Shown: positions 563 to 60,515, numbered from the stretch's first letter. The stretch: 60,530 bases of DNA from Candidatus Acetothermia bacterium (GCA_022684035.1 JAJHSB010000080.1:1-60530); one strand, 5' to 3'. Made by a program: numbers and translations. Notes: generated from the letters alone by a model not told the origin.

Positions 563-684
563 GTAACTACGCAGGTTAGATAGACTGCAGGTGGAAGGCT
601 ATGCGGGACAAATCATACGTGATCATGAGATGGCTAAAATACTTTCAGTCTTCGGTCTTCAACCTAAAATAGCTAATTAGCTAC
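563..684. repeat. Miniature imperfect inverted-repeat element (copy A)
   Basis: Ends gtaactacgcag / gctaattagctac. Bases 639-684 match the reverse complement of 29662-29707 at about 41 of 47 aligned positions. Confidence 0.7.
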
Positions 685-730
685 GCTAAAACTATGATTG
701 GAATCTGGGTGAGAAGAGGAGGACCGTGGA

Positions 731-952
731 ATGCGTGCTAAAGTTACACAGGCATTAGATGAGATAAGACTCTATTTACAAGCACACGGCGGTGATATTG
801 AATTGGTCGATGTTACTGCTGATGGCGTAGTGCAGGTGAGATTGACCGGCGCTTGTCAGGGATGTCCGATGAGTCAATATACTCTGAATATGCAAGTCGA
901 AGCGCAGCTCAAAGAGGCAGTACCGCAAATAAAACGTGTGGAAGCATTATAG
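731..952 (+). CDS. NifU/NfuA C-terminal-domain Fe-S carrier protein
   Basis: LQAHGGDIELV...VRLTGACQGCPMSQYTL: NifU domain with CxxC; SD gaggagg upstream. Confidence 0.92.
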   Translation: MRAKVTQALDEIRLYLQAHGGDIELVDVTADGVVQVRLTGACQGCPMSQYTLNMQVEAQLKEAVPQIKRVEAL

Positions 953-966
953 GAGGTTGCGCAGAG

Positions 967-1061
967 CCATCGATGGAAAAGATAACCAGAATCAATGACG
1001 TGATTAAGTATCAAAGAGTCTTCTAAATTCTAATAGCTTATCTTTTCTGTTCCATTGATGG
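967..1061. repeat. Imperfect inverted repeat downstream of nfuA-like gene
   Basis: ccatcgatggaaaagataa (967-985) pairs with ttatcttttctgttccattgatgg (1038-1061). Confidence 0.5.
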
Positions 1062-1390
1062 TCTTAGCGAAAATCAAGCAGATGTCTTTTGCAAAAGTTA
1101 TAGATCGTTTTTACCTGAAAACTTCGCTGAAGATGATATACTCCTTGCTTCAACCACCCGAATTTTGGTTTCTGCGGATTATATGTTGAGAGCGGTAAAC
1201 TTATAGTGTGGTATACTGTAAAAGGCGGTCTACTACTATTGCAGATTGGATGCAAATAGAGATCATCGAAGGTGGAATGTGCGCAAATCAAAGTCGGCAA
1301 TAGCAATAGCAAAATCCGTTCTCTTTTCTGACTCTTTTCGCTCCGTATCGCTTGCTAATTGAACAAAAGTCAGTATGCAAAGGAGTGATA

Positions 1391-1942
1391 ATGAAAATAA
1401 ACGTTGTTGAACGACAGCATAGTTCTAGCAAAAGTCCGAAAGAATACGCGATAAAAAAAACCGAGGCGCTCGACCGTTATTTTAATCGGGTAATAAGTGT
1501 CGATATTACTCTTTCAGTTGAAAGAGAAAAACAAATCGCGGATTTTGTTATCCATCTCATCAATCGTAAAATTATTAAGATACGTGAAGAATCAGATGAT
1601 ATGTATGCAGCGATCGATGGCGGAGTCGACAAGCTTAAACGACAACTGGTTAAGTATAAAGATAAGGTTAAGGATAAGGGATCGGGAAGTGCATTGCAAC
1701 AGAAGACTGAGGTCGTAGACGTATCGACCGATCTATCCGCTCTGATCCGACAGCAGGAGCACACGCACAAGGAGATTATCAGAACAGACCATGTTATTCG
1801 AAAGCCAATGTCACCCGAAGAGGCGGCACTCCAACTGACGGCTACCGATCAAATCTTTCTTGTTTTCATAAATGTGGCGTCTGGAACACCGAATGTCATT
1901 TACAAACGTAGGGATGGAAATTACGGACTTATAGAACCGTAA
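1391..1942 (+). CDS. hpf: Ribosome hibernation promoting factor, long form (HPF/RaiA)
   Basis: DMYAAIDGGVDKLKRQLVKYK N-domain plus C-terminal KPMSPEEAALQL...NVIYKRRDGNYGLIEP; ATG 1391 after aggag. Confidence 0.93.
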   Translation: MKINVVERQHSSSKSPKEYAIKKTEALDRYFNRVISVDITLSVEREKQIADFVIHLINRKIIKIREESDDMYAAIDGGVDKLKRQLVKYKDKVKDKGSGSALQQKTEVVDVSTDLSALIRQQEHTHKEIIRTDHVIRKPMSPEEAALQLTATDQIFLVFINVASGTPNVIYKRRDGNYGLIEP

Positions 1943-1979
1943 TTTTCTAAGCAGAAAGCTTCTCTTTTCTTTTGAAGAA

Positions 1980-3011
1980 GTGGTTATGGTAAGAGCTTTA
2001 TCGCTGTTCTCAGGAAGCTTAGCCAGCCTTGTTGCAACGCGGTTGGTGGAGCTGTCAGATGGGGTGGATGAAGTACAGTTATTGTCTTTTCGTTCACCGT
2101 TCTTTACTGATTATGAGCGGGTGCGTGAGATAGCCAAAAGAACTTGGCCGGCGATGCAGTTTCGTAGTCAGGCGATAAATAAAGACTATCAGCAGTTGGT
2201 GGGTATCTTATCTACTGATGAATTTTCACTGGCTCGTAGTTGTTACTATTGTCGTACTCTTATGTTGACGCGAGCAGCGCAATATATGAAACGGATCAAA
2301 GCAGATTTCATCGTCACCGGCGAGATAGAGGGAAGTAATGGATTGACGAAGTGCGAGTTAGAACGTATCAGCACTGATGCGGGGATCAGTGATCTTGTAT
2401 TACGTCCTCTCTCAGCAAAGTTGCTTTCCCCGACGCGGCCGGAGCAAGCGGGATGGGTTAATGCGGAAAACTTATACGATCTTCAAGTAGGTGATAAGGA
2501 ACGATTAGCAAAATTGGCGTTTACGTTAAACCTTGTTAATCAAAATTTGTTTGACCGATTTGACCGACAAGATAGGTGTAAATTGATTCGTCCTAACTTC
2601 GGGCCACGGTTAGCCGATCTTCTTTGTGAGAAAGAGTTTACACTGAATGGATTACGCCTGCTTGATTTTAGTTATTACTACAAGAAAGGACCGGATGTTA
2701 CGATTGTGCTGGCGATTGAAATAGAAGAGAAACGGAATTTACAGAATTTTTTTCTTCCCCAGGATGCGCGAGTCTATCTACCGACGCATCAGGGGCCATT
2801 GGCATTGGTTCGTACTGATTGGACAGCAAAGAAAGAAGATGAGATTGCGGAAATCATTGAATTGGCAGGGCGGATGATCGCTATTTATAGTGCAGCCGCA
2901 CATCATGAACAAATCCAAATTAACTATCGCTTTGAGAACAAGAACGAGACAATAAGCCGCACTATATCGCCGTTTGCTGACTTTAATGAAATTAATCGTT
3001 ATGCGGTTTAA
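1980..3011 (+). CDS. PP-loop tRNA thiouridylase-like (ThiI/MnmA-related, DUF814-type) protein with degenerate motifs
   Basis: ALSLFSGSLAS, CYYC, ADFIVTGE, VLRPLSAKLLSPTRPEQAGWV; start 1980 or 1986. Confidence 0.7.
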   Translation: MVMVRALSLFSGSLASLVATRLVELSDGVDEVQLLSFRSPFFTDYERVREIAKRTWPAMQFRSQAINKDYQQLVGILSTDEFSLARSCYYCRTLMLTRAAQYMKRIKADFIVTGEIEGSNGLTKCELERISTDAGISDLVLRPLSAKLLSPTRPEQAGWVNAENLYDLQVGDKERLAKLAFTLNLVNQNLFDRFDRQDRCKLIRPNFGPRLADLLCEKEFTLNGLRLLDFSYYYKKGPDVTIVLAIEIEEKRNLQNFFLPQDARVYLPTHQGPLALVRTDWTAKKEDEIAEIIELAGRMIAIYSAAAHHEQIQINYRFENKNETISRTISPFADFNEINRYAV

Positions 3012-3063
3012 TAGCGAATTTCTCGCACTGGAAACTATATTGTGCGGATTTCGTATTTTCATG

Positions 3064-3092
3064 TTGAAAAAAATATTGACCTGTGTTATATT
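3064..3092 (+). promoter_or_regulatory. Probable sigma70 promoter with extended -10
   Basis: TTGAAA(3064-3069)-17 nt-TATATT(3087-3092), TG at 3084-3085. Confidence 0.45.
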
Positions 3093-3145
3093 TATAGTTT
3101 AATTTAAAAATAGGGATCATCTCCAAAAAAGTTGGTAAGATCATG

Positions 3146-3280
3146 AGGATTCGAGGGAAATGCTTAAGAATTACAAAAGGATTCGAGGGGTCAAGCCCCG
3201 TATCAAGTACGGGGCAAGGATTCGCGGGAAATGCTTATAAAATCCTTACTCAAAAATAAGCACTTGAACCCTTGAACCCT
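3146..3280. repeat. Composite repeat: direct/inverted heptad-type repeats with an inserted REP-like palindrome
   Basis: aggattcg(a/c)ggg three times; gccccgta-tcaag-tacggggc (3195-3215); ataagcacttgaacccttgaaccct pairs back to the left arm. Confidence 0.75.
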
Positions 3281-3321
3281 TTATTTATTGGAACAAGGAT
3301 TAAAGAGGGAGGTAGTAAGGT

Positions 3322-3573
3322 ATGCCTTTTTTTCGCTATCAATGCCGTAAGTGCGGCGCGGAATTCAAAGTTTTGCAGCATAGCAATGACAAAATGGCAA
3401 CATGCTTAGAGTGTGATAGCAAATCGTTGGAGCAGCTTTTACCACGCATCGGGGTAATATACAAGGGGAGTGGCTATCATTCCACTGATTACAAAACTAC
3501 ACGTGCACGAGGGGCAGGAAGCAGTTCTGCAGATGATAAGCAATCAAGCAACGAAAATTCGGCTTCAGAATAA
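3322..3573 (+). CDS. FmdB-family zinc-ribbon protein
   Basis: MPFFRYQCRKCG...CLECDS...IYKGSGYHSTDY. Confidence 0.88.
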   Translation: MPFFRYQCRKCGAEFKVLQHSNDKMATCLECDSKSLEQLLPRIGVIYKGSGYHSTDYKTTRARGAGSSSADDKQSSNENSASE

Positions 3574-3630
3574 ACCGCCGGCATCTGATCTATTGGATAG
3601 ATGTGCGGAATGGCGGTTGCAATTTTTTTT
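3574..3630 (+). terminator. Probable intrinsic terminator
   Basis: accgcc...ggcggt stem enclosing gcatct/agatgtgc, followed by a T8 run. Confidence 0.5.
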
Positions 3631-3861
3631 AGAATGGATAAATCTTAAATCTATTGTGCTGGTAGTTATGGTGCAAGATAAGTAATTAAGAGATACGAAA
3701 TCAAAAATATATTACTACAGAGCATAAGGAACCGCTTTATCCTAACACACCCCTCTCAGCGGCAATCATTCAAACTAAAACTTGGGATTAAATCTAATTG
3801 GTACAGACAAGATGTAGATGATCAGGCGAATTAAGGAGCCTGTTAATGTAGGAGGTAGCAA

Positions 3862-8808: not shown

Positions 8809-8836
8809 AGCTGTGTGCTAAGTCGTCGACGCGTAG

Positions 8837-8865
8837 TTGACAGTAAGGCAGCGACGATATATAAT
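8837..8865 (+). promoter_or_regulatory. Consensus sigma70 promoter of the str operon
   Basis: TTGACA(8837-8842)-17 nt-TATAAT(8860-8865), perfect consensus. Confidence 0.85.
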
Positions 8866-8887
8866 ATTACCTTTTAGGAGTATAAAG

Positions 8888-9259
8888 ATGCCGACAATAA
8901 ATCAATTAATCAGGTTTGGACGTAAACCTAAGGTAAAACTGAGCAAATCAAGTGCTCTTTCGCTTTGTCCGCAAAAGAGGGGCGTATGCACGCGTGTTTT
9001 TACGAGGACGCCGAAAAAGCCTAATTCCGCCTTACGTAAAGTTGCACGAGTGCGATTGAGTAATGGCAAGCTCGTCACGGCTTACATTGGAGGAGAAGGA
9101 CATAACCTGCAAGAACACTCAATTGTGTTGGTGCGCGGCGGACGTGTCCAAGACCTTCCTGGCACTCGATATCATATTGTGCGTGGTGCTCTCGATTCCG
9201 AAGGGGTTGAAGGCCGTAAGCGGGGTCGCTCGAAATACGGTGCAAAGAAGGCTACTTAG
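8888..9259 (+). CDS. rpsL: 30S ribosomal protein uS12
   Basis: MPTINQL...[17 protein letters not shown]...[10 protein letters not shown]; ATG 8888 after aggag. Confidence 0.98.
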
Positions 9260-9336
9260 CCTGAAAAGAATCAAGAATCTTAAATTGCTCAGACCTGCCC
9301 CCTGGTCAAGTTAAGGAGAGGCTCTCGGCTGGCCCA

Positions 9337-9525
9337 GGGGTTTAAAGTTCCGGGGTTCACGGTCCAAGGTTGAAGAAGGAAAGACGGACGGAAAGTTTTG
9401 AGTTTTGGGCTAAGGAGTAGGGGTTAAGGATTTAAAAAGAGAGATTAGGGAGTAAGGAGAGCCACAAACTTTTCTTTCTTTAATTATTCACCTCTTTAAA
9501 CGGTGAACCTTGAATCTGATAACCC
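9337..9525. repeat. Heptad-type imperfect inverted-repeat element in the rpsL-rpsG spacer
   Basis: gggtttaaagttccggggttcacggt versus ctttaaacggtgaaccttgaatctgataaccc; the right arm recurs at 27515-27531 and 34671-34686. Confidence 0.6.
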
Positions 9526-9564
9526 GTGTAATTAAGATAATTTAGGAGAATAATAAGATTAAAG

Positions 9565-10023: not shown

Positions 10024-10110
10024 TTGAGTCAATACAACGAGGAAAATCTATTGATTACCGAAACGACTCTTAGAAGAAGAGTTTTACTTTCTCAGACGGA
10101 AAGTAGAGCG

Positions 10111-12192: not shown

Positions 12193-12193
12193 A

Positions 12194-24551: not shown

Positions 24552-24584
24552 AATAAAATGACCTGCCTCATGGAATACTACTTC

Positions 24585-24644
24585 TCCTGTGCAGTCCCGA
24601 TGAATCTCTATTTCACGGGATTGCACAGGAATTCCCATGGGAAT
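24585..24644. repeat. REP-like long hairpin plus adjacent perfect 14-bp palindrome
   Basis: cctgtgcagtcccg(a)tgaa / ttcacgggattgcacagg (24586-24629); attcccatgggaat (24631-24644). Confidence 0.7.
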
Positions 24645-24670
24645 ACGATTTTACAGGTGGGAGGACTAAG

Positions 24671-27432: not shown

Positions 27433-27596
27433 CACGATAGACAGCAATCAGCTCTTAGCCTATCAGCAACTTACATAAGCTACGAACTCTTTTCTAACGA
27501 TTCACTAATCCCTTCTTTAAACCGTGAACCTCTTACCCTCTGTCTCCCTATAAACCCTGTGAATCCAACAAACTCAGATTAATTTGCAATTTTCCG

Positions 27597-29661: not shown

Positions 29662-29759
29662 GTAGCCACTTAAGCTATTTAGGTTGAAGACCGCAGACTT
29701 AAAGTATCTTTATCCTTAACCTTTCCATCTTCGACTTTCAGCCGATCCTAAGTAGTCAT
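29662..29759. repeat. Miniature imperfect inverted-repeat element (copy B, same family as 563-684)
   Basis: gtagccacttaagctatttaggttgaagaccgcagac ... cctaagtagtca; shares ~46 nt with copy A in inverted orientation. Confidence 0.7.
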
Positions 29760-34607: not shown

Positions 34608-34651
34608 CAGTCTCTTGCCGTCCTTTAGAATGGAATAAGTAGAAATTATTC

Positions 34652-34707
34652 AGGTTCAAAGGTTTGGTGATTAACCGTGAACCTCTGCACTGCCATCTGA
34701 TAACCTA
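34652..34707. repeat. Short hairpin of the ggttca/tgaacc family
   Basis: aggttcaaaggtt...aaccgtgaacct followed by ctgataacc, as at 9497-9525. Confidence 0.55.
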
Positions 34708-44004: not shown

Positions 44005-44037
44005 GGTCGATTAAGTTCGTAGAGTGAGCGGTTCATC

Positions 44038-44076
44038 TGCCTGTGGTTCCTCTCTGCGCGCGGACACGCACAGGCA
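44038..44076. repeat. REP-like palindrome between convergent genes
   Basis: tgcctgtg ... cacaggca perfect 8-bp arms. Confidence 0.55.
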
Positions 44077-44110
44077 AACGCCCTTCTCCTCTTTCTATAG
44101 CTGCTTTCTT

Positions 44111-50152: not shown

Positions 50153-50321
50153 ACAGGTTAAACTGCAGTTCCCGCCGATTAATTCTCGATTATTATAATA
50201 ATTGAACCGGCAGCGGAAATCATACGACATACTATCGAATAAATCCTCATTGCGGTTGTGGTTAAAACAAAGTTATGTTACAATACGTTAAGAATAAATG
50301 GACGCAATGATTATGAATAAC

Positions 50322-50503
50322 TTACCGAGGCCGCAAAGAGCGCTGAGAAAGACAAACAATAAGCACTCTGAGTCCTCTGCGTGCTTGGTGGTAAAAAAAA
50401 TAGGGAAGAATGAAAGATGGCATAAACCGCATTGTGTGAGCAATCGGTATATAGAGAGTGCAGAGATTCTGGAAATAAATAATTCTCAGTCTGCTCTGCG
50501 GTT
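50322..50503. repeat. Two tandem imperfect palindromes of the ccgcag/ctgcgg type
   Basis: ttaccgaggccgcaaagag...ctctgcgtgcttggtggtaa (50322-50394); aaccgc...gagagtgcagaga...tctgctctgcggtt (50425-50503). Confidence 0.55.
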
Positions 50504-50544: not shown

Positions 50545-51513
50545 ATGAATATGACAAATACTGTCTTAGCGGTGAAAAATCTTACCAAGATTTATGACGG
50601 ACGACGAGGGAAGAAAACCATTGCTGTCGATGATATCAGCTTTTCTATCAGAAAGAATGAGGTTGTAGGACTCCTCGGCCCAAACGGTGCTGGCAAGACG
50701 ACAACGATCAAGTGCATCTGCACATTGATCAACCCCACGAAGGGCACGATTAACGTCAACGGCACTGATGCAGTAAAGAATTCGCGTACCGTCCTGCAGA
50801 AAGTGACGGCTGTTTTAGAAGGGAACAGAAATATCTACTGGCGGCTCTCAGTGCGGGAGAACCTGGAGTTCTTCGCTGGTCTCCAAGGTATCCCTGCCCG
50901 CCGAGTGCAGAACTATATCGATCAATTGATCGAGTTGTTTCAGCTCAAAGAAAAGGAACAGACCCCGGCACGCAAACTCTCCCGCGGAATGCAGCAAAAG
51001 TTGGCCGTTGCCTGTGCATTGGTTAAGCAAACTGATATCTTGCTTCTCGATGAACCTACATTAGGTCTCGACGTGGAGATATCGCACGAATTGCGCTTCG
51101 CATTAAAAGAGATGGCCCAGCAGGGCGAGCGGACGATCATCGTCTCGAGCCACGACATGAGCGTAGTGCAGGACATTTGCGAGCGAGTGATCATCATCAA
51201 TAATGGGAGAATCGTCACCGACGATCGGGTGGCAAATCTCTTGAGACTGTTCCAGGCCAGTGCTTATCGTTTCGAGATCGAAGGCCGACTGGCCGAGCAG
51301 CAGGTGAAGCGACTGGAGGAGCGGTTTGAGATGCTCAAGGTCAGCGGAACCGACTACCACACCGAGATCGAAGTAGATCTGGAAGATGGCAACCAGATAT
51401 ACGAGATCATGGATATATTAAAAGAGGGCGACAGTCGCATAAGGTCAATCGCGCGCAAAGATCCGAACATGGAAGAGATATTCCTCACAATTATCAAAGG
51501 AAGCAAACAGTGA
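50545..51513 (+). CDS. ABC-2 type exporter ATP-binding protein
   Basis: GPNGAGKTT, LSRGMQQK, LLLDEPT, SSH. Confidence 0.93.
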   Translation: MNMTNTVLAVKNLTKIYDGRRGKKTIAVDDISFSIRKNEVVGLLGPNGAGKTTTIKCICTLINPTKGTINVNGTDAVKNSRTVLQKVTAVLEGNRNIYWRLSVRENLEFFAGLQGIPARRVQNYIDQLIELFQLKEKEQTPARKLSRGMQQKLAVACALVKQTDILLLDEPTLGLDVEISHELRFALKEMAQQGERTIIVSSHDMSVVQDICERVIIINNGRIVTDDRVANLLRLFQASAYRFEIEGRLAEQQVKRLEERFEMLKVSGTDYHTEIEVDLEDGNQIYEIMDILKEGDSRIRSIARKDPNMEEIFLTIIKGSKQ

Positions 51514-52286
51514 GATACTTGGTGCTCTTTAAGACGATGTTTAAATGGGAGTTCATCATAATGAGACGATATCTGTTCAATATGCTCTCAGCGCTCATCA
51601 GTATTTACATCCTTTTCCTGCTTATCTTCTTTGGTGTGCGCACTTTGGGCGGCGGCGCACCAGGATTCGGGGGCACTCTGGACGCAATCGTCGTTGGTTT
51701 TTTAGTTTGGACCTTCGCGCTCTTCACCTATAGTAATTTTGCCTGGGGAATGATTCGTGAAGCACAAGAAGGCACACTGGAGCAGTTGTACATGTCCTCG
51801 GTCGGATTCATCTGGGTCTCTCTGTTTCGCAGCATGAGTTCTTTTCTCATCACGTTGATATTCAATATTACTTTGTTGATATTGATGATGGCTACTACCG
51901 GCCGCTGGCTCCATCTCGATGTAATCAGTCTTCTGCCGCTATTACTCCTTACGCTCGCCGGTGTTTATGGTATCGGGCTTGTAATGGGCGGGTTGGCATT
52001 GGTCTTCAAGCGGATCGAGTCGTTCCTCCAGATCTTTCAATTCGCCATCATTGGACTGATTGCTACTCCGATCGACCGGTTTCCGGTGCTGCGATTTCTG
52101 CCGCTCTCTCAAGGGTATGAACTGATCCGCCAGGTGATGGCTGAGGGGCTATCCATCGGGCAGCTTCCAACTGGCGATCTCCTGTTATTAGTGATTAATT
52201 CAGCATTTTACCTCGGGATCGGTCTGATCGCGTTCCACCTCCTGCTGAAGACGGCGAGGAATAGGGGGCTGCTGGGACATTACTGA
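51510..52286 (+). CDS. ABC-2 type permease, paralogue 1
   Basis: ~6 TM segments, EAQEGTLEQLY loop, ends RGLLGHY. Confidence 0.9.
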   Translation: MRYLVLFKTMFKWEFIIMRRYLFNMLSALISIYILFLLIFFGVRTLGGGAPGFGGTLDAIVVGFLVWTFALFTYSNFAWGMIREAQEGTLEQLYMSSVGFIWVSLFRSMSSFLITLIFNITLLILMMATTGRWLHLDVISLLPLLLLTLAGVYGIGLVMGGLALVFKRIESFLQIFQFAIIGLIATPIDRFPVLRFLPLSQGYELIRQVMAEGLSIGQLPTGDLLLLVINSAFYLGIGLIAFHLLLKTARNRGLLGHY

Positions 52287-52363
52287 TCGCCCTGTTTAGG
52301 GAGGATACGATTAGACGCTTGCAGAGAGCAGAGAACGGCCGTACATACACATAAAGGAGAAAA

Positions 52364-52609
52364 ATGGGCTTTACATGTGGGTTGATCGGCTTACCCAATG
52401 TCGGCAAATCTATGCTGTTGAACGCACTCTCTGCTGCCGGTGCCCAGGTGGAGAGTTATCCATTCTCCACATCATTTGCCAATGTCAATGTAGCAGATGT
52501 GCCGGATGAGCAGCTCGACCTTCTTGCCGCTTTCCGGAGAAGCAGAAGATCCCCACCCAATTACAGTTCCTTGATATCGCCGGCTTAGTGAGCGGAGCAA
52601 GCACGGGAG
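52364..52609 (+). pseudogene. ychF: Truncated, frameshifted ychF 5' fragment
   Basis: Copy of the ychF start with GKSML P-loop change and a 4-nt deletion (gccgctttcc vs gccgctctctttcc); homology ends at 52609. Confidence 0.9.
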
Positions 52610-52645
52610 GAGAAATGCGAGGAGGAAGGGACAGTGGAGTGACAG

Positions 52646-53440: not shown

Positions 53441-53441
53441 T

Positions 53442-53464
53442 GGGGGCTGCTGGGGCACTATTAA
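53442..53464 (+). pseudogene. Orphan 3' tail of a third ABC-2 permease paralogue
   Basis: ggg ctg ctg ggg cac tat taa = GLLGHY*, the same ending as both permeases but with different codons. Confidence 0.7.
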
Positions 53465-53480
53465 CATCGGAGGTTAGACA

Positions 53481-53552
53481 TTGACCGAAGATACAGGTGT
53501 TGGGAGAGTCAAGTTCTGGGAGCAGACCTTCATTTTAAGCAGATTAAGGTAA
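53481..53552 (+). pseudogene. 23-aa ORF or gene stub with strong SD, containing the RAYT-flank-like motif
   Basis: ggagg + TTG: MTEDTGVGRVKFWEQTFILSRLR*; gggagcagaccttcatttt at 53518-53536. Confidence 0.35.
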
Positions 53553-53565
53553 GGGGGCGCGGACA

Positions 53566-54567: not shown

Positions 54568-54805
54568 GCAGTGGGATACACTGTACAGGGGAACAGAGTG
54601 CGTCTGGGGCATTGAGCCGGACCGTGTGTGTGGTGTGGAGGAAGCGTTCCGGAATCAAAACAGGCTTCTCTCATCGAAAGATGAGTGTGAGCCGTTACCT
54701 TTTGATATACTTAAAGCAGGCGACAGCCGTATAAAGGCGATCGCTCACAAAGATCCGAACATGGAAGAGATATTCCTCACAATTATCAAAGGAGGTAAAA
54801 AGTGA
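54545..54805 (+). pseudogene. Chimeric ORF: methyltransferase-like N-terminal stub fused in frame to ABC ATPase C-terminal stub
   Basis: MSERQTSRQWDTLYRGTECVWGIEPD...DILKAGDSRIKAIAHKDPNMEEIFLTIIKGGKK*; stop overlaps GTG of permease 2. Confidence 0.6.
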
Positions 54806-55905
54806 GATACTTGGTGCTCTTTAAGACGATAGTTAAATGGGAGTTCATCATGATGAGACGATATCTGTTCAATATGCTCTCATTTCTGATTAGTATGTAT
54901 ATCTTTTTCCTGCTTATCTTCTTGGGTGTACGCGCCTTGGGCGGCGGCGCATCAGGATTCGGGGGAACTCTGGACGCGATCATCGTAGGATTCTTAGTCT
55001 GGACCTTCGCGATCTCCACTTATAGTGATTTTGCCCAGGGAATGGTTCAGGAAGCACAAGAGGGCACACTGGAGCAGTTGTACATGTCCTCGGTCGGATT
55101 CATCTGGGTCTCTCTGTTTCGCAGCATGAGTTCTTTTCTCATCACGTCAATATTTATTATTACTTTGTTGATATTGATGATGGCTACTACCGGCCGCTGG
55201 CTCTATCTCGATGTAATCAGTCTCCTGCCGCTATTACTCCTTACGCTCGCCGGTGTTTACGGTATCGGGTTTATCATGGGAGGATTGGCATTGGTCTTCA
55301 AGCGGATCGAGTCGTTCATCGGGATCTTTCAATTCGCCATGGTCGGGCTGATCGCTGCTCCGATCGACCGGTTCCCGGTGCTGCGCTATCTGCCGCTCTC
55401 TCAGGGGAACGAACTAATCCGCCGGGTGATGGCCGAGGGGCTATCTATCGGGCAGCTTCCAACCGGCGATCTCCTGTTATTGGTGATTAATTCCGCATTT
55501 TACCTCGGGATCGGGCTGATTACATTCAAGCTGCTACTTAAGACAGCGAAGAATAGAGGACTGTTGGGGCATTACTGATCGCCCTGTTTAGGGAGGATAC
55601 GATTAGACGCTTGCAGAGAACAGAGAACGGCCGTACATACACATAAAGGAGAAAAATGGGCTTTACATGTGGGTTGATCGGCTTACCCAATGTTGGCAAA
55701 TCTACGCTGTTGAACGCACTCTCTGCTGCCGGTGCCAAGGTGGAGAGTTATCCATTCTCCACCATTACTACCAATATTGGTGTAGTAGATGTGCCGGATG
55801 AGCGGCTCGACCTTCTTGCCGCTCTCTTTCCGGAGAAGCAGAAGATCCCCACCCAATTACAGCTCCTTGATATCGCCGGCTTAGTGAGCGGAGCAAGCGC
55901 GGGAG
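54704..55905 (+). repeat. ~1.2-kb direct repeat, copy 2
   Basis: Matches 51412-52609. Confidence 0.95.
54802..55578 (+). CDS. ABC-2 type permease, paralogue 2
   Basis: Same length as paralogue 1; about 32 of 258 residues differ by manual count. Confidence 0.9.
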   Translation: MRYLVLFKTIVKWEFIMMRRYLFNMLSFLISMYIFFLLIFLGVRALGGGASGFGGTLDAIIVGFLVWTFAISTYSDFAQGMVQEAQEGTLEQLYMSSVGFIWVSLFRSMSSFLITSIFIITLLILMMATTGRWLYLDVISLLPLLLLTLAGVYGIGFIMGGLALVFKRIESFIGIFQFAMVGLIAAPIDRFPVLRYLPLSQGNELIRRVMAEGLSIGQLPTGDLLLLVINSAFYLGIGLITFKLLLKTAKNRGLLGHY

Positions 55906-56744
55906 AAGGATTAGGAAATCAGTTTCTCGCTGAAATCAGAACAGTTGATGCCATTCTCCATGTTGTACGTTGTTTCCGCGATGAGAATGTGGCTCACGTT
56001 ACCGGAGAATTGGACCCGGAAGGAGATATTGCAATCGTCAATACCGAACTTCTACTCAAAGACCTTGAGACATTACAGCGAACTTGCGCCACCCTTTCCC
56101 GGCAACAGAAATCCGGTGACCGTCAGATTAAAACGCGGTTTACTCTCTGCCAAACGCTCCTTGAAACTGTAGCCCGGGGTTCCGCTATCGATATAGGAGA
56201 GGTTGATTCTGATGCGGAAGCGCTGATTCGTGAACTCTCTCTCCTTACTGCCAAGCCGGTCCTCTATATAGCCAATGTCGATGATAACGGCAAGAACGAA
56301 TATTCACGCCGGGTAGAAGAATTAGGGCAGAGAAACGGAATAAGGACGATCACCATCTGCGGCCGAATCGAAGCAGAGATAGCCGAGATAGCTGTAACGC
56401 CTCTGGAGAGAAAGAGTTACTTAACAGCATGGGGGCTCGCTGAGAGTGGCCTTTCCCAATTGATTCGTGCCAGTTACGATCTGCTGAAATTGGTCACCTT
56501 CTTCACAATTGACGGACCAGAAGTCCGCGCGTGGACCGTACCACAGAATACAACGGCTCCGATTGCTGCCGGTAAAGTCCATAGCGATTTTGCCAATCGC
56601 TTCGTCCAGGCAGAAGTGATGGATGTAGAAAATCTTTGCCAATATAAGAGTGTGAAGACGTTGCGAGAAAAGGGTCTGATAAGACGCGCCGGCCGTGATC
56701 ATATTGTGCAAGATGGCGAGATCATCCATTTTATCTGTGGATAA
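55656..56744 (+). CDS. ychF: Redox-regulated ATPase YchF (Obg family)
   Basis: GLIGLPNVGKSTL, DIAGLV.GAS.GEGLGNQFL, TAKP..YIANV, AAGKVHSDF..RFVQAEV. Confidence 0.95.
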   Translation: MGFTCGLIGLPNVGKSTLLNALSAAGAKVESYPFSTITTNIGVVDVPDERLDLLAALFPEKQKIPTQLQLLDIAGLVSGASAGEGLGNQFLAEIRTVDAILHVVRCFRDENVAHVTGELDPEGDIAIVNTELLLKDLETLQRTCATLSRQQKSGDRQIKTRFTLCQTLLETVARGSAIDIGEVDSDAEALIRELSLLTAKPVLYIANVDDNGKNEYSRRVEELGQRNGIRTITICGRIEAEIAEIAVTPLERKSYLTAWGLAESGLSQLIRASYDLLKLVTFFTIDGPEVRAWTVPQNTTAPIAAGKVHSDFANRFVQAEVMDVENLCQYKSVKTLREKGLIRRAGRDHIVQDGEIIHFICG

Positions 56745-56756
56745 GGCAGCAGGTAA

Positions 56757-56921
56757 GTCATTGCGAGTTTACGAAGCAATCCCGTTGCTTTAGCCTAGTC
56801 GTAGGGGCAACCCCCTGTGGTTGCCCATTTTTGGGACAGGCACAGGGGCCTGCCCCTACAGGAATAATGATGCCATGGACATGACAAGATTGCCACGAGT
56901 TCTGCGAACTCTCGCAATGAC
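56757..56921. repeat. Nested REP-like elements
   Basis: Outer gtcattgcgag..gaagcaatc / gattgccacg..ctcgcaatgac; inner gtaggggcaaccccctgtggttgccc..gggacaggcacaggggcctgcccctac (56801-56859). Confidence 0.85.
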
Positions 56922-56960
56922 AAGAAAAAGGAGGCGCTGCATCCCCGCAATGGCAAGAAC
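56887..56960 (+). repeat. Left copy of ~75-bp long-range inverted repeat
   Basis: First 43 nt are identical to the reverse complement of the 3' end of 60312-60387; the remainder is similar. Confidence 0.9.
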
Positions 56961-57065
56961 GCTTGCTGCCAGCTTGTTCATACTGGATCTTACTTGCGTG
57001 CAAGCATAACTATTACATATAATAGAAGGCAAGTCATATCTTTTGCTTGCCGAGGAGGAGATACA

Positions 57066-57677
57066 ATGATACGCAGCATCAAATTATCAAAGATTCTGTT
57101 GGTTATAGCCGCTATTTTACTTGTTACCGCACCGAGCAGCTGGGGACAAGCAGAATTAGACGAATTCCCATTTGGGACAACGACAATGGTCTATCGTATC
57201 GTCAGTGAAGAGATAGAAGCGCCGCAATATTTGCGGATAACGGTCACCGGTTTGGAAGACGGACGGTTTCAACTCATCATAACGCAGGAGGCGATCGGAA
57301 CGCCGGAGGAGTTAGCCTTCTTTGGTCTTTTAGGTGGAATGATGTTGCCTCACGCTGACGGGCGTGAAATCGACTTTACGCCGCTCTTCTTTCTGATGGA
57401 ACGCCGTGAATTGCTTGTAGTAGGTGAAGAGTTCCTCCTCATCAGAGGAGGAAGATTCATTGTCGTTAAGTATATTGAAATTGCAGGAATAGAAGCGATT
57501 CAGGGAATTTTCTTTCATCCACGACAACCTACTGAGCGAATAGTCATTGCTTTTTCCCTCCGAGCTCCGGTCTTTCTCTTTCCACGGTTGCGAGTGGAAG
57601 AACTGATCAACGATGAATGGGTGTCTCGATTTGAAGTCGAATTGATTGAGTACGCCCATCAACTACCAGCCAAATAG
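57066..57677 (+). CDS. Hypothetical secreted protein
   Basis: ggaggag + ATG 57066; signal-peptide-like MIRSIKLSKILLVIAAILLVTAPSSWG; no family recognised. Confidence 0.75.
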   Translation: MIRSIKLSKILLVIAAILLVTAPSSWGQAELDEFPFGTTTMVYRIVSEEIEAPQYLRITVTGLEDGRFQLIITQEAIGTPEELAFFGLLGGMMLPHADGREIDFTPLFFLMERRELLVVGEEFLLIRGGRFIVVKYIEIAGIEAIQGIFFHPRQPTERIVIAFSLRAPVFLFPRLRVEELINDEWVSRFEVELIEYAHQLPAK

Positions 57678-57685
57678 GAGGCAGA

Positions 57686-58372
57686 ATGTCATTAGTAAAA
57701 TTGCGCAACATTACCAAAGAATATCAGTTGGGAAAGACAGTGGTGCACGCACTACGCGGGGTTGATCTGGCGATCGACGCGGGAGAGATCGTCGCCATCA
57801 TGGGACCATCGGGATCGGGTAAATCAACCCTAATGCACATCATCGGCTGCCTCGATATGCCTTCGGTAGGGGAGGTGGAGATTGAAAATATGCCGACAGA
57901 TTCTCTCAGAGAGCGACAACTGGCAACAATACGAGGTCGCAAGATTGGGTTTGTCTTCCAAACATTCAACTTAGTCGCCAGCCTCACTGCGCAGGGGAAT
58001 GTGGCATTACCGATGATCTTTCAGAAAATAAAGCGAACTCAGCGTACACAACGAGCCGCGGAGTTGTTGGAGAAAATCGGCTTGGGTGATCGGAAGAACC
58101 ATCACCCTAATGAACTCTCAGGTGGAGAGCGACAGCGAGTCTCTATCGCGCGGGCAATGGCCAATGACCCCGATATTATCCTTGCTGACGAGCCGACCGG
58201 AAACCTCGATTCTGAGAGCGGGGCGACGGTAATGAGAACTCTCAGGCGCCTGAGCGACGAGGAAGGAAAAACGGTGATCGTCGTCACTCATAACCCCGAG
58301 GTTGCTGCTTATGCAGATAGGGTTATCACATTACGTGACGGAAAAATAATTAAGGAGGAGCGCCGTGATTAA
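57686..58372 (+). CDS. ABC ATP-binding protein, LolD/MacB/SalX type
   Basis: GPSGSGKST, LSGGERQR, LADEPTGNLD, VTH. Confidence 0.94.
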   Translation: MSLVKLRNITKEYQLGKTVVHALRGVDLAIDAGEIVAIMGPSGSGKSTLMHIIGCLDMPSVGEVEIENMPTDSLRERQLATIRGRKIGFVFQTFNLVASLTAQGNVALPMIFQKIKRTQRTQRAAELLEKIGLGDRKNHHPNELSGGERQRVSIARAMANDPDIILADEPTGNLDSESGATVMRTLRRLSDEEGKTVIVVTHNPEVAAYADRVITLRDGKIIKEERRD

Positions 58373-59618
58373 AGATTTCTTCTTTCTGGCACTAAAGACT
58401 GTGCGGCAGCGCCGGCTGCGCAGTTGGCTGACGGTGATCGGAGTCGTTATCGGGATCACGGCCGTGGTGGCACTGCTCTCTCTCGGCATTGGACTGGAGC
58501 GAACAATCATTGCTCAGGTCGAGGGGATATTCGGAGTAGATACGATAATGATTATGAGAGGAGTCGAGGAGAGAGATCCGAGGAGAGATACGAGAAGAGG
58601 TCCGGTACCTGGGCTGATTGACATCGAACCTGACCTGGTGCGCCAGGTGGAGGAGGTCGTTGCCATCGCCCCAATCCGGTCGGAGACAGGTCTTATTCGC
58701 AGAGTGGCGGAAAATGGTGTGCCAGTAAGTGGTTTCTTTCCGGTAATCGGACTTTACTCGGAGATGGTCACTGAGTTCAGGGCGTTTATCGGGGAGTTTC
58801 CGATCGCTGCCGGCCGGATGTTAATCGTCGGAGATGAGCGCAAGGCAATCCTCGGCTATGCTGTTGCTCAGAGATTGGCGGTAACGCCCGGCAAAACGAT
58901 CGAGATCGAAGGCCAGTCATTTCAAGTCGTTGGGATCATTGAAACCTATCCCGAGGAGATGAAAGCGGCCATGGGTGCCGCTGCCGGGCTGGAACCGATT
59001 CTCACCGATGAGACAATCTTCATTCCATTTGCGATGATGGAGGAGATCTTTGGCGATGCTGGAGCACCTCTCTTCTTGGCTAAAGCAGGCGAAAGAGAGG
59101 ATGTGGTAATCGTGGCTGAGAGAATCAACACCGCGCTTGCTGAAGCAGGTGTGGATGGTATTTTATTAGTGACGTTTGAGGAGATCAGTCAAGGAATCGG
59201 GACTATGGTTAACATCGTGAGCTCCTTTGTTGCCGGGCTTGCGGGTATCGCCCTCCTTGTTGGCGGAGTGGGGCTGATGAACACTATGTATACATCTGTT
59301 CTGGAGCGAACGAGAGAGATCGGAGTAATGAAGGCGGTCGGGGCGCAGAACAGGCATATCTTGTCGATCTTCCTTATCGAATCAAGCCTGATGGGGTTTA
59401 TCGGCGGAATAGTCGGCATTATTTTGGGTCTGTTGCTAAGCGTTGGGGCGTCGCTCGCGATGCGCCATTTTTGGGAATTTGAGCTACTTCTGGGGATCAG
59501 CGCGCCGCTGATTATCGGAGCGCTTCTCTTCTCCCTCCTCGTTGGAGCCATTGCAGGCATGTTGCCGGCACGGCGAGCGAGTAAGTTGCGTCCGGTTGAA
59601 GCTTTTCGCTACGAATAG
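58365..59618 (+). CDS. ABC permease, MacB/FtsX (SalY) type
   Basis: RSWLTVIGVVIGI, large extracytoplasmic domain, GVGLMNTMYTSVLERTREIGVMKAVGA. Confidence 0.93.
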   Translation: MIKDFFFLALKTVRQRRLRSWLTVIGVVIGITAVVALLSLGIGLERTIIAQVEGIFGVDTIMIMRGVEERDPRRDTRRGPVPGLIDIEPDLVRQVEEVVAIAPIRSETGLIRRVAENGVPVSGFFPVIGLYSEMVTEFRAFIGEFPIAAGRMLIVGDERKAILGYAVAQRLAVTPGKTIEIEGQSFQVVGIIETYPEEMKAAMGAAAGLEPILTDETIFIPFAMMEEIFGDAGAPLFLAKAGEREDVVIVAERINTALAEAGVDGILLVTFEEISQGIGTMVNIVSSFVAGLAGIALLVGGVGLMNTMYTSVLERTREIGVMKAVGAQNRHILSIFLIESSLMGFIGGIVGIILGLLLSVGASLAMRHFWEFELLLGISAPLIIGALLFSLLVGAIAGMLPARRASKLRPVEAFRYE

Positions 59619-59774
59619 CGGTTTTACCGACATAATGGGGTATGCGATGCACTAAGATAAAGATTTGCAGCAAGCCAACTGTTCTGTTAGATGAAAAATA
59701 ACTAGCCGACCGTTGGATTTTGTTTATCCTGTTATCCGGTCAAAAAACTTACCTTAGCATTAAGGAGGAAAAGA

Positions 59775-60164
59775 ATGCTAAAAGAGAAACAACGTCATGG
59801 TTGCCTTACTATTTGGCTCGTATTACTGATTATCGGAGGCGTACTATCGCTTATCGGAACGGCTGTAATGTATCTTGTGGATCCCCAACTAATGAGAGAG
59901 ACTTTTCCGGATGCTCCGGGATGGACAGTTTATGCGATGGGCCTTATCAGCCTCTTTAGCTTTGTCTTCGCGATTGTCCTATTCACCTGGAAGAAGTGGG
60001 CATTTTGGGGTTATGTAGTGACCAGTATCGCCAGCGCTATTGTGAGTATAACAATGGGAACACCCGCTTGGCAATGGCTGTTAGGCTTAACTGGTGTAGT
60101 TATCCTCTACGGAGTGCTGCAGATCGGCGGCGAAGAGAAGAAAGGCTGGACACAGTTGGAGTAA
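59775..60164 (+). CDS. Hypothetical ~4-TM membrane protein
   Basis: ggagg + ATG; KQRHGCLTIWL followed by hydrophobic segments. Confidence 0.75.
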   Translation: MLKEKQRHGCLTIWLVLLIIGGVLSLIGTAVMYLVDPQLMRETFPDAPGWTVYAMGLISLFSFVFAIVLFTWKKWAFWGYVVTSIASAIVSITMGTPAWQWLLGLTGVVILYGVLQIGGEEKKGWTQLE

Positions 60165-60311
60165 TCAACTCGGCTCGCTATTCCGAGAGTGATCTTACCG
60201 GACTTACTCCCACTCTGCTTTCGCTGACTTAGCTTGGCCTCTCTGCCTACCCGCGATCGGGCGGGCGTTAGGCAAGTGGCTTTTACCCACACGTAAGACC
60301 GTAGCCTTCTT

Positions 60312-60387
60312 GTTCTTATCATTGCCGGGGGTGCAGCATCTCTTTTTTTCTTGTCATTGCGAGAGTTCGCAGAACTCGTGGCAATCT
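60312..60387 (-). repeat. Right copy of ~75-bp long-range inverted repeat
   Basis: gttcttatcattgcc...cttgtcattgcgagagttcgcagaactcgtggcaatct. Confidence 0.9.
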
Positions 60388-60456
60388 CAAAGAGATAATG
60401 CTCGTTTAGATACTAAAATCTGAAGTCTTGCGCAAAATGGGAAGGAAATGAAAACA

Positions 60457-60515
60457 CAAATTCCAAGCACCAATTTCCAAACAAATCTCAATGACCAATG
60501 ACCAAAATCTCAAAC
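60457..60515. repeat. Left arm of a heptad-type low-complexity element
   Basis: caaattccaagcaccaatttccaaacaaatctcaatgaccaatgaccaaaatctcaaac (aatgacc twice); partner arm presumably beyond the window. Confidence 0.55.

Follow-up and report, generated by a model that had tools for sequence, protein, structure and literature searches.

Do the palindromic and 7-nt-periodic repeats between the genes of this contig belong to one mobile system, or have several families accumulated side by side? The window (the whole 60,530-nt stretch analysed) is one entire contig of a 1.56 Mb metagenome-assembled genome (MAG) of 81 contigs. A first-pass annotation had read its repeats, at eight site groups, as one poorly described system of hairpin-ended elements. 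Multi-copy status was assessed here by blastn and 14-mer counts against the whole genome, and palindromy by comparing the ssDNA fold at each site with 200 shuffles. The repeats include an ISL3 MITE, REPs of the published GTAG and CGTC classes and single-copy hairpins, i.e. several unrelated families, most of known types, and they therefore do not form one new system. We favour, with a probability of about 0.7, a lineage-specific bloom of several independent, non-autonomous and mostly palindromic selfish repeat families, accompanied by two unrelated single-copy hairpins.

Repeat load, low-copy families and the ISL3-type MITE

Short dispersed repeats (14-mers with at least five occurrences) make up ~3% of the genome, or 47 kb, and, of the bases they cover, 80% are not in ORFs, though ORFs take up 82% of the genome. 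Three of the eight site groups (3146, 56757/60312 and 60457) belong to high-copy families and three (563/29662, 9337/27515/34652 and 44038) to families of 6-22 copies; the other two, 24585 and 50322, are single-copy in the genome, and the earlier count of at least seven distinct arm families is upheld for the six multi-copy groups and not for these two. Multi-copy repeats occupy ~9 of the roughly 20-25 window spacers of at least 100 nt, and to say that they fill most long spacers was an overstatement. Palindromy is likewise uneven: folding is strong at 56750-56935 (z -7.5), 24575-24645 (z -7.6) and 3104-3290 (z -4.3), weak at 34645-34700 (z -1.9) and 44030-44085 (z -1.0), and no better than shuffles at 9325-9535 (z +0.4), 50320-50395 (z -0.1) and 575-675 (z +1.0). 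The low-copy and single-copy features are:

579-668, + strand: repeat of ~90 nt, with 6 copies in the family, within the 5' leader of a NifU-like gene
9288-9411, + strand: low-copy repeat pieces in the enlarged (305 nt) rpsL-rpsG spacer
24584-24632, + strand: perfect 15-bp hairpin, single-copy, lying between rpmJ and rpsM within the loop of a hairpin that is older and conserved
27519-27539, - strand: arm module of the GGTTCACGG family (AGGTTAAGAGGTTCACGGTT type), found 22 times when up to 3 mismatches are allowed
29678-29707, - strand: 3' half only of a 579-668 family member, upstream of deoC, 93% identical over 30 nt to 639-668
34651-34690, + strand: small hairpin of the GGTTCACGG family, 7-bp stem GGTTCAA.../...GTGAACC, in the divergent hutH/amidohydrolase spacer
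44041-44076, + strand: hairpin of REP-like form (CTGTCTGCGTGCGGACACGCACAGGCAGAC type), flanked by recJ and the DUF1667 gene, which are convergent

The rpsL-rpsG spacer matches contig C35 at 9288-9363 (85.5% over 76 nt) and C21 at 9386-9411 (100% over 26 nt), its unaligned gap is 256 nt here vs 89-138 nt in three congeners, and it holds two members of the GGTTCACGG arm family, GGGGTTCACGG (9353-9363) and ACGGTGAACC (9500-9509). This arm family has 14 exact copies in the genome; its hairpin at 34651-34690 contains multi-copy 14-mers at 34673-34686 and is one of the GAGGTTCACGG sites. The 44041-44076 type has 14 copies at up to five mismatches, elsewhere usually fused directly to a CGTC head. At rpmJ-rpsM the 15-bp hairpin has one genome copy at up to four mismatches, and the congeners keep the outer stem (tgacct...aggtca) around loops that differ or are short. 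The earlier observation of repeats inside the ribosomal superoperon is thus borne out, with family pieces in the spacers of the ribosomal gene cluster.

One high-copy family is of a quite different type:

3114-3282, + strand: ISL3-type MITE, left TIR beginning at 3114, right end missing in this copy
3190-3216, + strand: GTC-tagged 8-bp hairpin GTCAAGCCCCGTATCAAGTACGGGGCA nested in the MITE, flanked by direct AGGATTCG(A/C)GGG repeats

This family is a MITE derived from ISL3 and moved by a DDE transposase, because it shares its TIRs with an ISL3 element and has 8-bp target duplications. Its ends are found about 22 (left) and 31 (right) times genome-wide, full copies are 120-213 bp long and non-coding, and with the right end set at ...GAACC an AT-rich 8-bp target duplication is perfect in five of the 12 full copies. 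ISL3 elements generate 8-bp duplications. The TIRs GGATCATCTCC/GGTTCTTCTCC are those of a defective ISL3 element at C21:28468-30145 (MITE GGATCATCTCCAAAAAAG and GGTTCTTCTCCAATTTAG against element ends GGTTCTTCTCCCAAAAG and GGCTCTTCTCCAAATTTA), which, on a reading of its translation alone, putatively encodes N- and C-terminal pieces of the ISL3 transposase. The ~18-nt TIRs starting GG(A/T)TC(A/T)TCTCC, AT-rich 8-bp duplications, size range, absence of coding and presence of a TIR-matching ISL3 element in the same genome all conform to ISL3-family MITEs; unlike these, the sole assembled ISL3 copy is defective and the window MITE lacks its right end. No intact ISL3 transposase that could act in trans is in the assembly, where the family is represented by a single copy, internally deleted and interrupted, plus one distant fragment. 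The nested GTC-tagged hairpin is a consensus unitig with 15 copies, is not in the 124-nt MITE consensus, and forms the core of the z -4.3 fold.

CGTC-tagged REP pairs and the GTAG doublet within them

The modules at the right end of the window are:

56757-56783, + strand: CGTC/TGTC-tagged REP of subtype H2 (GTCATTGCGAGtttacGAAGCAATCCC), left half of an outward-headed pair
56801-56859, no strand assigned: doublet of GTAG-tagged REPs, GTAGGGGCAACCCCCTGTGGTTGCCC and, in inverse orientation, GTAGGGGCAGGCCCCTGTGCCTGTCCC, lying inside the CGTC pair
56888-56960, - strand: CGTC-tagged REP of subtype H1 (56888-56921), then a polypurine linker and relic head
60312-60386, + strand: relic head, polypyrimidine linker and H1 REP (60353-60386), an inverted copy of 56888-56960
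60388-60530, + strand: half of a long heptad-periodic (CCAAnnn) arm module, cut by the contig end

The most abundant family of the genome is this CGTC/TGTC-tagged REP, usually an outward-headed pair with other modules inside. Its 11-mer GTCATTGCGAG occurs 121 times, in heads reading (T/C/G)GTCATTGCGAG, and hairpin copies number 59 for H1 and 56 for H2, arranged in 21 outward-headed H1...H2 pairs and many head-to-head junctions with a ~30-nt linker. In the window the 56888-56960 element shares 43 identical nt with 60345-60387, and the fold of H1 by itself gives z -2.35. Amplification of the CGTC family is confined to this species, a species-specific burst: its heads number 121 here, vs 10, 2 and 2 in the congeners and 0-4 in a further 180 genomes from the phylum (for a generalised head pattern, 43 vs 10 vs background), a contrast that could be exaggerated since the MAGs of the relatives, 1.0-1.1 Mb in size, are fragmented and may under-assemble repeats.

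CGTC-tagged REPs were described as a class in 2013 (Di Nocera, De Gregorio & Rocco, BMC Genomics 14:522; PMC3733652), taking in Neisseria dRS3 and Rickettsia RPE-4/RPE-6. They have an unpaired terminal CGTC, often TGTC or CCTC, an 8-9-bp stem with A-T pairs at positions one and two, a 4-5-nt loop and a short tail, mostly CCA, and are mostly inverted dimers without a dedicated flanked transposase gene (PMC3733652). The REPs here agree in the unpaired 5' CGTC/TGTC tag, the stem opening A-T, T-A, the C-rich tail, the mostly inverted pairing and the lack of an adjoining transposase gene. They differ in that the simple stem and loop give way to a 5-bp basal stem (ATTGC/GCAAT, starting AT) followed by a GAG/GAA internal loop and variable upper stem, the tail is CCC (H2) or CTC (H1), and other repeat modules widen the pair interior to 43-314 nt; the presumed phylum also lies outside the five of the 2013 survey (PMC3733652). 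The half-site GTCATTGCGAG-N-GAAGCAATC is found in at least 120 contigs of many phyla, with hosts including Bradyrhizobium, Sphingomonas, Pedobacter, Chloroflexi and Patescibacteria, and Bradyrhizobium CGTC-1, noted for its atypical loops (PMC3733652), carries the same half-site as the REPs of this genome. Among 172 sites in other phyla, 109 have a C and 57 a T ahead of GTC, and in 68 the tail is CAG after GCAATC (..AT-CCAG). A dRS3-like variant, CGTCATTCCCGCGAAAGCGGGAATCCAG, occurs 17 times in this genome.

The GTAG doublet consists of two inverted halves (56801-56826 and 56833-56859), each a GTAG head followed by a palindrome, present in 7 and 8 copies. It makes up the inner stem of the fold with z -7.5, and the 104-nt interior of the 56757-56921 pair recurs in C15 and C33; with these interiors, modules and folds the reported nesting of elements in one another is confirmed. 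GTAG REPs and REPINs are mobilised by RAYT (Nunvar 2010; Bertels & Rainey 2011, as cited in PMC3733652 and PMC6006769). The doublet resembles REPINs in being an inverted pair of ~26-nt GC-rich palindromes that each open with GTAG; unlike them, it is of low copy number (7-14 per subtype), sits inside a CGTC pair, and has no Y1 gene flanked by doublets. A Pfam Y1_Tnp search gave three matches in the genome and none in this contig, where the 9-codon RAYT-like relic reported earlier was not found. None of the three Y1 genes is flanked by GTAG REPs, their flanks carrying TTAGGGACACATCCCATATTT-type and GGGACGGTTCTTTTGTGTT-type repeats, and no transposase gene is flanked by CGTC REPs, the Y1 genes at C60 and C11 having other flanking inverted repeats. 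No mobiliser for the REP-type and heptad families was found in the genome. The first-pass picture of several distinct families is right, these being dispersed and mostly non-coding; for two kinds, the CGTC REPs and the heptad-armed modules, there is no known mobiliser.

Heptad-periodic arms and four-helix-bundle genes

Across the genome there are 96 exact heptamer arrays with 2.5 units or more, vs 0.3 expected under a second-order Markov model, and only six arrays of period 8. The ~7-nt periodicity noted earlier is therefore a genome-wide property, but the window examples reach only 2-2.6 units (7 nt in two cases, 8 nt in one) and would not reach significance alone. There are more than 35 kinds of unit, the commonest being AATGACC (29 arrays), inside an arm module. 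The CCAAnnn arm module has 46-47 copies, usually between an H1 and an H2 REP, and full ~370-bp REP/arm composites lie at C18:4170-4542 and C21:32205-32579. Heptamer tandem repeats are familiar as the STRRs of heterocystous cyanobacteria. TAACTGA repeats occur in Beggiatoaceae, cyanobacteria and Bacteroidetes (MacGregor 2015, PMC4679880). The heptads described here are, like both, intergenic runs of 2-13 exact or near-exact 7-nt units, found also in ribosomal-protein gene spacers. In contrast to both, they comprise many units with a fixed anchor (YAG-N4, CCAA-N3, CACGA-N2) and are usually placed as one arm of a palindrome or between a pair of REPs rather than immediately ahead of start codons; a single dominant unit placed mostly directly upstream of starts, as in the TAACTGA pattern, is absent genome-wide. 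Hairpins built of 7-base units remain poorly described, the YAG-N4 arms at four-helix-bundle genes least of all.

These arms speak for a single system, one of hairpin-ended, heptad-armed autonomous micro-transposons whose cargo protein (Avd-like four-helix-bundle or GxxExxY PD-(D/E)XK) would bind the arms, with the window copies as non-autonomous derivatives. The arms of the genome's only intact four-helix-bundle gene (C21) are CAGNAGN heptads, a unit type shared with the hypervariable H1-H2 arrays (at least 14 empty elements) and with the arms of 11 internally deleted gene relics, and this element (C21:28930-29345) is inserted in the ISL3 transposase gene. Related genes at 74 metagenome loci, compared with 56 controls, have at least three phased YAG-N4 units in the upstream (36/74 vs 4/56) and downstream flanks (37/74 vs 0/56), and flank complementarity of at least 12/14 at 34/74 vs 2/56. 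At C77:42650 a GxxExxY gene is flanked by CACGAAT-type arms and adjoins an empty twin. We nevertheless consider a single system unlikely, as it leaves part of the finding uncovered: a DDE partner exists for the MITE, the CGTC and GTAG REPs fall into different published classes, and two sites are single-copy. The window contains no cargo gene, four-helix-bundle or other, and congeners without the burst have 2-5 four-helix-bundle genes, and Y1 genes too, yet no comparable bloom. The heptads also hold a Shine-Dalgarno-like GGAG, and the arms could thus serve expression, not mobility; to our knowledge the four-helix-bundle fold has no catalytic activity.

A further proposal, tentative and only slightly less doubtful, would make the heptad-armed fold-back elements a class of tiny mobile elements that is widespread and has yet to be described. 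Their arms would be phased short-anchor arrays (YAG-N4 for the four-helix-bundle, CACGA-type for the GxxExxY nuclease) acting as putative iterated binding sites for the enclosed protein, the empty hypervariable arrays, among them those inside CGTC REP pairs, would descend from the elements as non-autonomous copies, and orphan CGTC REPs would spread by using the heptad-armed hairpins as landing sites. The 23S rRNA intervening-sequence/four-helix-bundle proteins (PF05635; relatives of Avd, a DGR protein) are the family found with YAG-N4 arms here and at the 74 metagenome loci, though, unlike those loci, the window is without such a gene; our literature search returned no paper presenting four-helix-bundle genes as heptad-armed mobile units.

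Turnover and accumulation of the repeats

At the orthologous NFACT/Zn-ribbon, rpsL/rpsG, rpmJ/rpsM and ychF-downstream spacers, content and length differ among four congeneric genomes, with G003 and G000 carrying differing module sets at the same spacers; turnover of the repeats is rapid. Congener genes are ~85% identical and the intergenic DNA is too diverged for empty-site comparison; no insertion with a clean empty site was seen in the congeners compared, and mobility of the REP-type and heptad families is thus deduced from copy number, distribution and turnover, not from junctions. One repeat pair does bracket a gene block (56994-60164), as first noted, but the block follows ychF in two congeners without flanking repeats and is therefore ancestral, not shuttled cargo. 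The proposal that the elements shuttle small cargo is not supported, nothing in the window carrying any.

The intergenic hairpins could also, instead of being selfish, be structural signals in RNA or DNA that the host selects (terminators, sites that stabilise or process mRNA, binding arrays for a heptad-reading regulator acting in trans). This would suit the copies between convergent genes (44041-44076) and in the rpsL-rpsG and rpmJ-rpsM spacers, the proposal that heptamer arrays of Beggiatoaceae and cyanobacteria are regulator sites (PMC4679880), and the 579-668 family. The latter has one arm of GAAGGTN heptads and another of complementary units, blastn matches in C1, C32, C70, C81 and the window (29678-29707), and aligned copies in 5' leaders just upstream of the SD/start of acpP, dapF, a glmU-like gene, deoC and nifU. 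These downstream genes are, however, functionally unrelated, the main family is plentiful in this species only, orthologous congener spacers hold other sequences, and no HutP-type NAG-N4 reader is encoded in the genome. Repeat islands also match background proportions of tandem, divergent and convergent gene pairs (173/46/44 vs 956/193/188), convergent pairs not being favoured over divergent. As a general explanation this is improbable, more so than a single system, but some families, e.g. the 579-668 leader family, may have a cellular function. A chimeric or contaminated assembly can be practically dismissed: 43% of contig ends (70/162, from 81 contigs) do lie in repeats, but most copies are internal with unique syntenic genes on both sides, the same families occur at orthologous spacers of the independently assembled G003, and contamination of this ~93% complete assembly is estimated at 1.7%.

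In the favoured bloom of independent families, repeats would have accumulated wherever intergenic spacers tolerate them and within one another's loops, any effect on transcripts probably being a by-product. By analogy with RAYT/IS200-type HUH transposases, an enzyme acting in trans may spread the REP-type families in the form of single-stranded hairpins. GTAG doublets, REP-like hairpins and heptad arm modules appear both alone and nested in CGTC pairs, and hairpins already in place may be favoured for landing or growth, which would account for the 'Russian-doll' architecture. The arms of four-helix-bundle-gene elements are the probable source of the YAG-N4 arrays that separate H1 from H2; these arrays would then change fast by slippage. 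Outer REP pair, inner arms and innermost centre are each also found alone, and fixed neighbourhoods recur, as head - AAAGGAAGGTAAT - head and head - polypurine - head. The BIMEs of E. coli are likewise mosaics of REPs and fixed linker motifs in which fixed neighbourhoods between modules recur; the mosaics here are distinct from them in their module families, much deeper nesting and long heptad-periodic arms.

Repeat content of the window

The window is one entire contig (C75) of an assembly of 1.56 Mb in 81 contigs, with an estimated completeness of 92.6% and contamination of 1.7%. Its gene content is ordinary: a NifU-like gene, hpf, an NFACT-like gene, a zinc-ribbon gene and rpoC; the ribosomal cluster from rpsL to rplQ; deoC and a pyrimidine nucleoside phosphorylase gene; a GGDEF gene, era and hutH; cmk, rpsA and hup; glycerol-3-phosphate dehydrogenase-type genes, recJ, secF and nrdDG; and an ABC-2 transporter, ychF and a four-gene transport block. 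Scans for tRNAs and against Rfam at gathering thresholds turned up no matches in the window. The small repeats among these genes are real; they form a dense, nested mixture, mostly of known kinds. By blastn and 14-mer counts against the complete genome, multi-copy sequence in the window is limited to nine places (629-668, 3114-3276, 9395-9408, 27519-27535, 29678-29693, 34673-34686, 44061-44076, 56771-56930 and 60344-60530), and the first-pass annotation, which had repeats occupying most long spacers, overstated their reach. The assigned features are:

579-668 and 29678-29707: six-copy family in the 5' leaders of unrelated genes
3114-3282: ISL3-type MITE
3190-3216: GTC-tagged hairpin of 27 nt inside the MITE, flanked by direct AGGATTCGAGGG repeats
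27519-27539, 34673-34686 and two short motifs in the rpsL-rpsG spacer: GGTTCACGG arm family, 22 copies
44041-44076: REP-like hairpin family, 14 copies
56757-56783, 56888-56921 and 60353-60386: CGTC/TGTC-tagged REP hairpins
56801-56859: GTAG-tagged REP doublet between two CGTC halves
60388-60530: half of a long arm module of CCAAnnn heptads, 46-47 copies in the genome

Genome-wide, 14-mers present at least five times cover about 47 kb (3%), and 80% of repeat bases lie outside ORFs, though 82% of the genome is ORF. Repeats terminate 70 of the 162 contig ends (43%), including the window's right end; they break the assembly and also produce spurious ORFs. Their distribution over tandem, divergent and convergent gene pairs resembles background, and gene-pair orientation therefore lends no support to a terminator-type role for the repeat islands. 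A riboswitch reading of the family at 579-668 was rejected because the genes downstream are unrelated.

Several of the proposed families are real and multi-copy, but two single-copy hairpins and some stretches that do not fold had been taken for family members, and with the overstatement about spacers the original observation is therefore confirmed in part. When single-stranded DNA folding was compared with shuffles, palindromy was strong at 56750-56935 (z -7.5), 24575-24645 (z -7.6) and 3104-3290 (z -4.3), and absent at 9325-9535 (z +0.4), 50320-50395 (z -0.1) and 575-675 (z +1.0). The hairpins at 24585 and 50322, both put forward as arm families, have one genome copy each. That at 24584-24632, between rpmJ and rpsM, is set in the loop of an older hairpin; the congeners, three genomes of the same genus, have kept the outer stem of this older hairpin. 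Because the inner hairpin is a perfect, single-copy palindrome, local inverted duplication, to which template switching is a route, would be a more likely origin than transposition. Across this spacer (24552-24670 compared with congeners G001, G002 and G003) the outer stem tgacct...aggtca is retained around loops of a few nt (G001), about 35 nt (G002 and G003) and about 75 nt (window) that grew independently; the hairpin appears to grow at its tip.

The element at 3114-3282 is an ISL3-type MITE, with termini that are inverted repeats, GGATCATCTCC... and ...GGAGAAGAACC. The genome holds about 22 left and 31 right ends, complete copies measure 120-213 bp, and 8-bp AT-rich target duplications are perfect in 5 of 12 full copies (right end set at GGAGAAGAACC). 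The same ends bound a 1.68-kb element on contig C21 (28468-30145) encoding N- and C-terminal parts of an ISL3-type transposase, as judged from reading the translation. The window copy lacks the right end, and the GTC-tagged hairpin inside it is a 15-copy module missing from the 124-nt MITE consensus.

A direct duplication of 1.2 kb (51427-52609 and 54719-55905, 90% identity) repeats the tail of an ABC ATPase gene, an ABC-2 permease gene and the start of ychF, and between the two copies is a GC-rich (53-58%) insert with YhfC-like and GNAT genes; in G003 the permease gene leads straight into ychF.

CGTC-tagged REPs and their enlarged interiors

The hairpins GTCATTGCGAG...GCAATC are CGTC/TGTC-tagged REPs. 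As defined by Di Nocera et al. (2013; PMC3733652), this class has a CGTC or TGTC tag, a stem starting with AT and a short C-rich tail, occurs mostly as dimers and apparently lacks a dedicated transposase, a definition that the hairpins of the window and genome fit. Two later papers citing this description carry it in the reference list only and add no mobiliser for CGTC repeats, and a full-text literature search with GTCATTGCGAG returned chance primer matches only. Subtype H1 accounts for 59 copies in the genome, subtype H2 for 56 and a Neisseria-dRS3-like variant for 17. We know of no mobiliser for CGTC-tagged REPs reported since they were described in 2013.

The 11-mer GTCATTGCGAG occurs 121 times here; the three congeners have 10, 2 and 2 copies, and another 180 genomes from the phylum have 0-4 each. 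Its reversed control pattern is absent from this genome. A generalised pattern, GTCAT-N3-GAG-N3-16-GAR-N3-ATC, has 43 matches here, 10 in G003 and background numbers elsewhere. Orphan CGTC REPs in this phylum, with a species-specific burst, are new. Among species-representative genomes the pattern GTCATTGCGAG-N3-20-GAAGCAATC is present on at least 120 contigs, typically as inverted pairs spaced 20-50 nt apart, in hosts that include Bradyrhizobium, Sphingomonas, Pedobacter, Mucilaginibacter, Chloroflexi, Desulfobacterota, Patescibacteria, Planctomycetota, Microcoleus and Sporomusa. The half-site across phyla combines a 5-bp basal stem (ATTGC/GCAAT) and a conserved GAG/GAA internal loop with a variable upper stem, whose changes, read by eye, look compensatory (e.g. 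GCCGCC..GGCGGC, GGCAC..GTGCC). The commonest variable middle (loci L031-L150 from other genomes, and this genome) gives rise to the heptamer GCGAAGC. This heptamer forms a DNA mini-hairpin of unusual stability and, together with the conserved internal loop, hints that the CGTC element is read as folded single-stranded DNA. With over 120 copies in a single species whose genome is small (about 1.6 Mb), against 2-10 in the three congeners, the expansion offers a compact comparative setting for a hunt for the enzyme responsible.

The nesting reported by the first-pass annotation is borne out, as modules lie inside one another and 21 H1...H2 pairs enclose other modules in interiors 43-314 nt long. 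The composite is built of modules: outer REP pair, inner arms and innermost centre are each found singly and in varied combinations. GTAG doublets fill three identical 104-nt interiors, that of the window included. At least 14 are hypervariable arrays of 3-13 heptads, all in YAG-N4 phase (CAGGAGA, CAGAAGC, CAGTAGA, CAGCCAC, TAGCCAC and other units), and others hold CCAA-arm modules; a full CCAA-arm module between H2 and H1 REPs makes a composite of about 370 bp (e.g. C18:4170-4542, on another contig). Elsewhere in the genome the hairpin of the 44041-44076 family usually adjoins a CGTC head. The arrangement of CGTC and GTAG REPs resembles BIME mosaics; such greatly enlarged, module-filled interiors of CGTC pairs are new. 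The idea of a single system of hairpin-ended elements gives way to a mixture of ISL3 MITE, CGTC- and GTAG-tagged REPs and heptamer arrays, mostly of known kinds.

Heptad arms and four-helix-bundle genes

Exact heptamer arrays of at least 2.5 units number 96 genome-wide against 0.3 expected, with only 6 period-8 arrays, so the 7-nt periodicity noticed in the window is real for the genome; the strings singled out in the window itself have only about two units each, and one is 8-nt. Only 2 of the 96 arrays have a strictly inverted partner made of the identical heptamer; the arms have unit types in common, not exact units. Looking through the genome revealed no encoded HutP-like reader of NAG-N4 repeats.

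The only intact four-helix-bundle gene of the genome (Pfam 23S_rRNA_IVP, E 5e-34) is flanked by heptad arms of CAGGAGC/CAGAATT type, and 11 internally deleted relics are nested in CCAA-arm modules. Insertion of the gene and its arms (C21:28930-29345) within the ISL3 transposase gene of C21:28468-30145 we read as direct evidence that the gene-plus-arms unit has moved. We fetched 80 metagenome loci encoding proteins 58-81% identical, and analysed the 74 with sufficient flank on both sides. Averaged over the flanks, autocorrelation is highest at lag 7 (0.37-0.38 versus about 0.26-0.28). Three or more phased YAG-N4 units occur in 36/74 upstream flanks, and complementary units in 37/74 downstream flanks, compared with 4/56 and 0/56 in control pieces 200-300 nt off; the two flanks are complementary at 12/14 or better in 34/74 loci and 2/56 controls. 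Periodicity, unit counts and complementarity together mark heptad inverted arms as a conserved trait of these genes. Four-helix-bundle elements are a plausible source of the empty YAG-N4 arrays lying between REP halves. This putative tie between heptad arrays and four-helix-bundle gene arms is new; literature under GxxExxY and PF05635-type names yielded no description of heptad-armed elements. Subjects usually discussed apart meet in this genome: REP hairpins, the bacterial heptamer repeats that have long lacked an explanation, and the multi-copy four-helix-bundle ('23S rRNA IVS protein') genes.

On five unrelated metagenome contigs (L185, L188, L190, L209 and L182) the four-helix-bundle gene stands directly 5' of a thiolase-like gene starting MKDAVIVSAVRT, with a conserved, non-heptad upstream flank, which suggests a recurrent or inherited insertion site.

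Candidate mobilisers and turnover among congeners

A RAYT-like relic had been proposed as a candidate mobiliser; none turned up in the window by the Pfam Y1_Tnp search, whose three matches in the genome lie on contigs C60 and C11, flanked by different inverted repeats. Y1 transposases and four-helix-bundle genes were both rejected as burst-specific drivers of the CGTC REPs because congeners have both; the latter number 2-5 there, yet without a bloom. A repeat outside the window with consensus atcactcttacaatatcttgtcatacacgtatggtatatcttgcaaaatccaaactaaagaaataagtatggtgtcccc, among the genome's most abundant (about 51-58 copies), has an end, GGGGACACCATACTTATTT, resembling the TTAGGGACACATCCCATATTT inverted repeats that flank a Y1 (RAYT-like) gene at C60:8638-8967, which raises the possibility of a RAYT/REPIN-like pair.

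Nothing in the window is small cargo of the kind the repeats were said to shuttle. The inverted H1 pair around 56994-60164 gives a false 'composite transposon' geometry: in G001 as in G003 the block comes after ychF, so the flanking H1 modules are separate insertions into two spacers; at about 59 H1 copies per 1.56 Mb, a spacing of 3.4 kb is unremarkable.

Gene synteny holds in the congeners at 80-87% nucleotide identity, but conservation does not extend to the spacers. The NFACT/zinc-ribbon spacer contains the MITE here, 337 nt of unrelated sequence in G002 and, in G001, a 620-nt decayed four-helix-bundle element carrying its own CGTC-type REPs. Between rpsL and rpsG, 256 nt of spacer fail to align here and 89-138 nt in congeners; 3' of ychF the spacer measures 270 nt in this genome, 134 nt in G001 and, with unrelated sequence, 462 nt in G003. 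Most of the few CGTC sites of G003 are at spacers also filled with repeats here, with different module sets, and one corresponds to a repeat-free 104-nt spacer of unrelated sequence. A clean empty site with a junction was found neither among sites filled in G003 and 'empty' in this assembly nor among the reverse cases, all of which are sequence replacements. From these differing contents we infer that hot-spot spacers gain and lose repeats rapidly. At one G003 locus (L164, G003:C47:2600-5620) a CGTC head coincides exactly with a switch of synteny between C18:20044-21527 and C77:16083-17277 of the present assembly, and may mark a rearrangement breakpoint at a REP.
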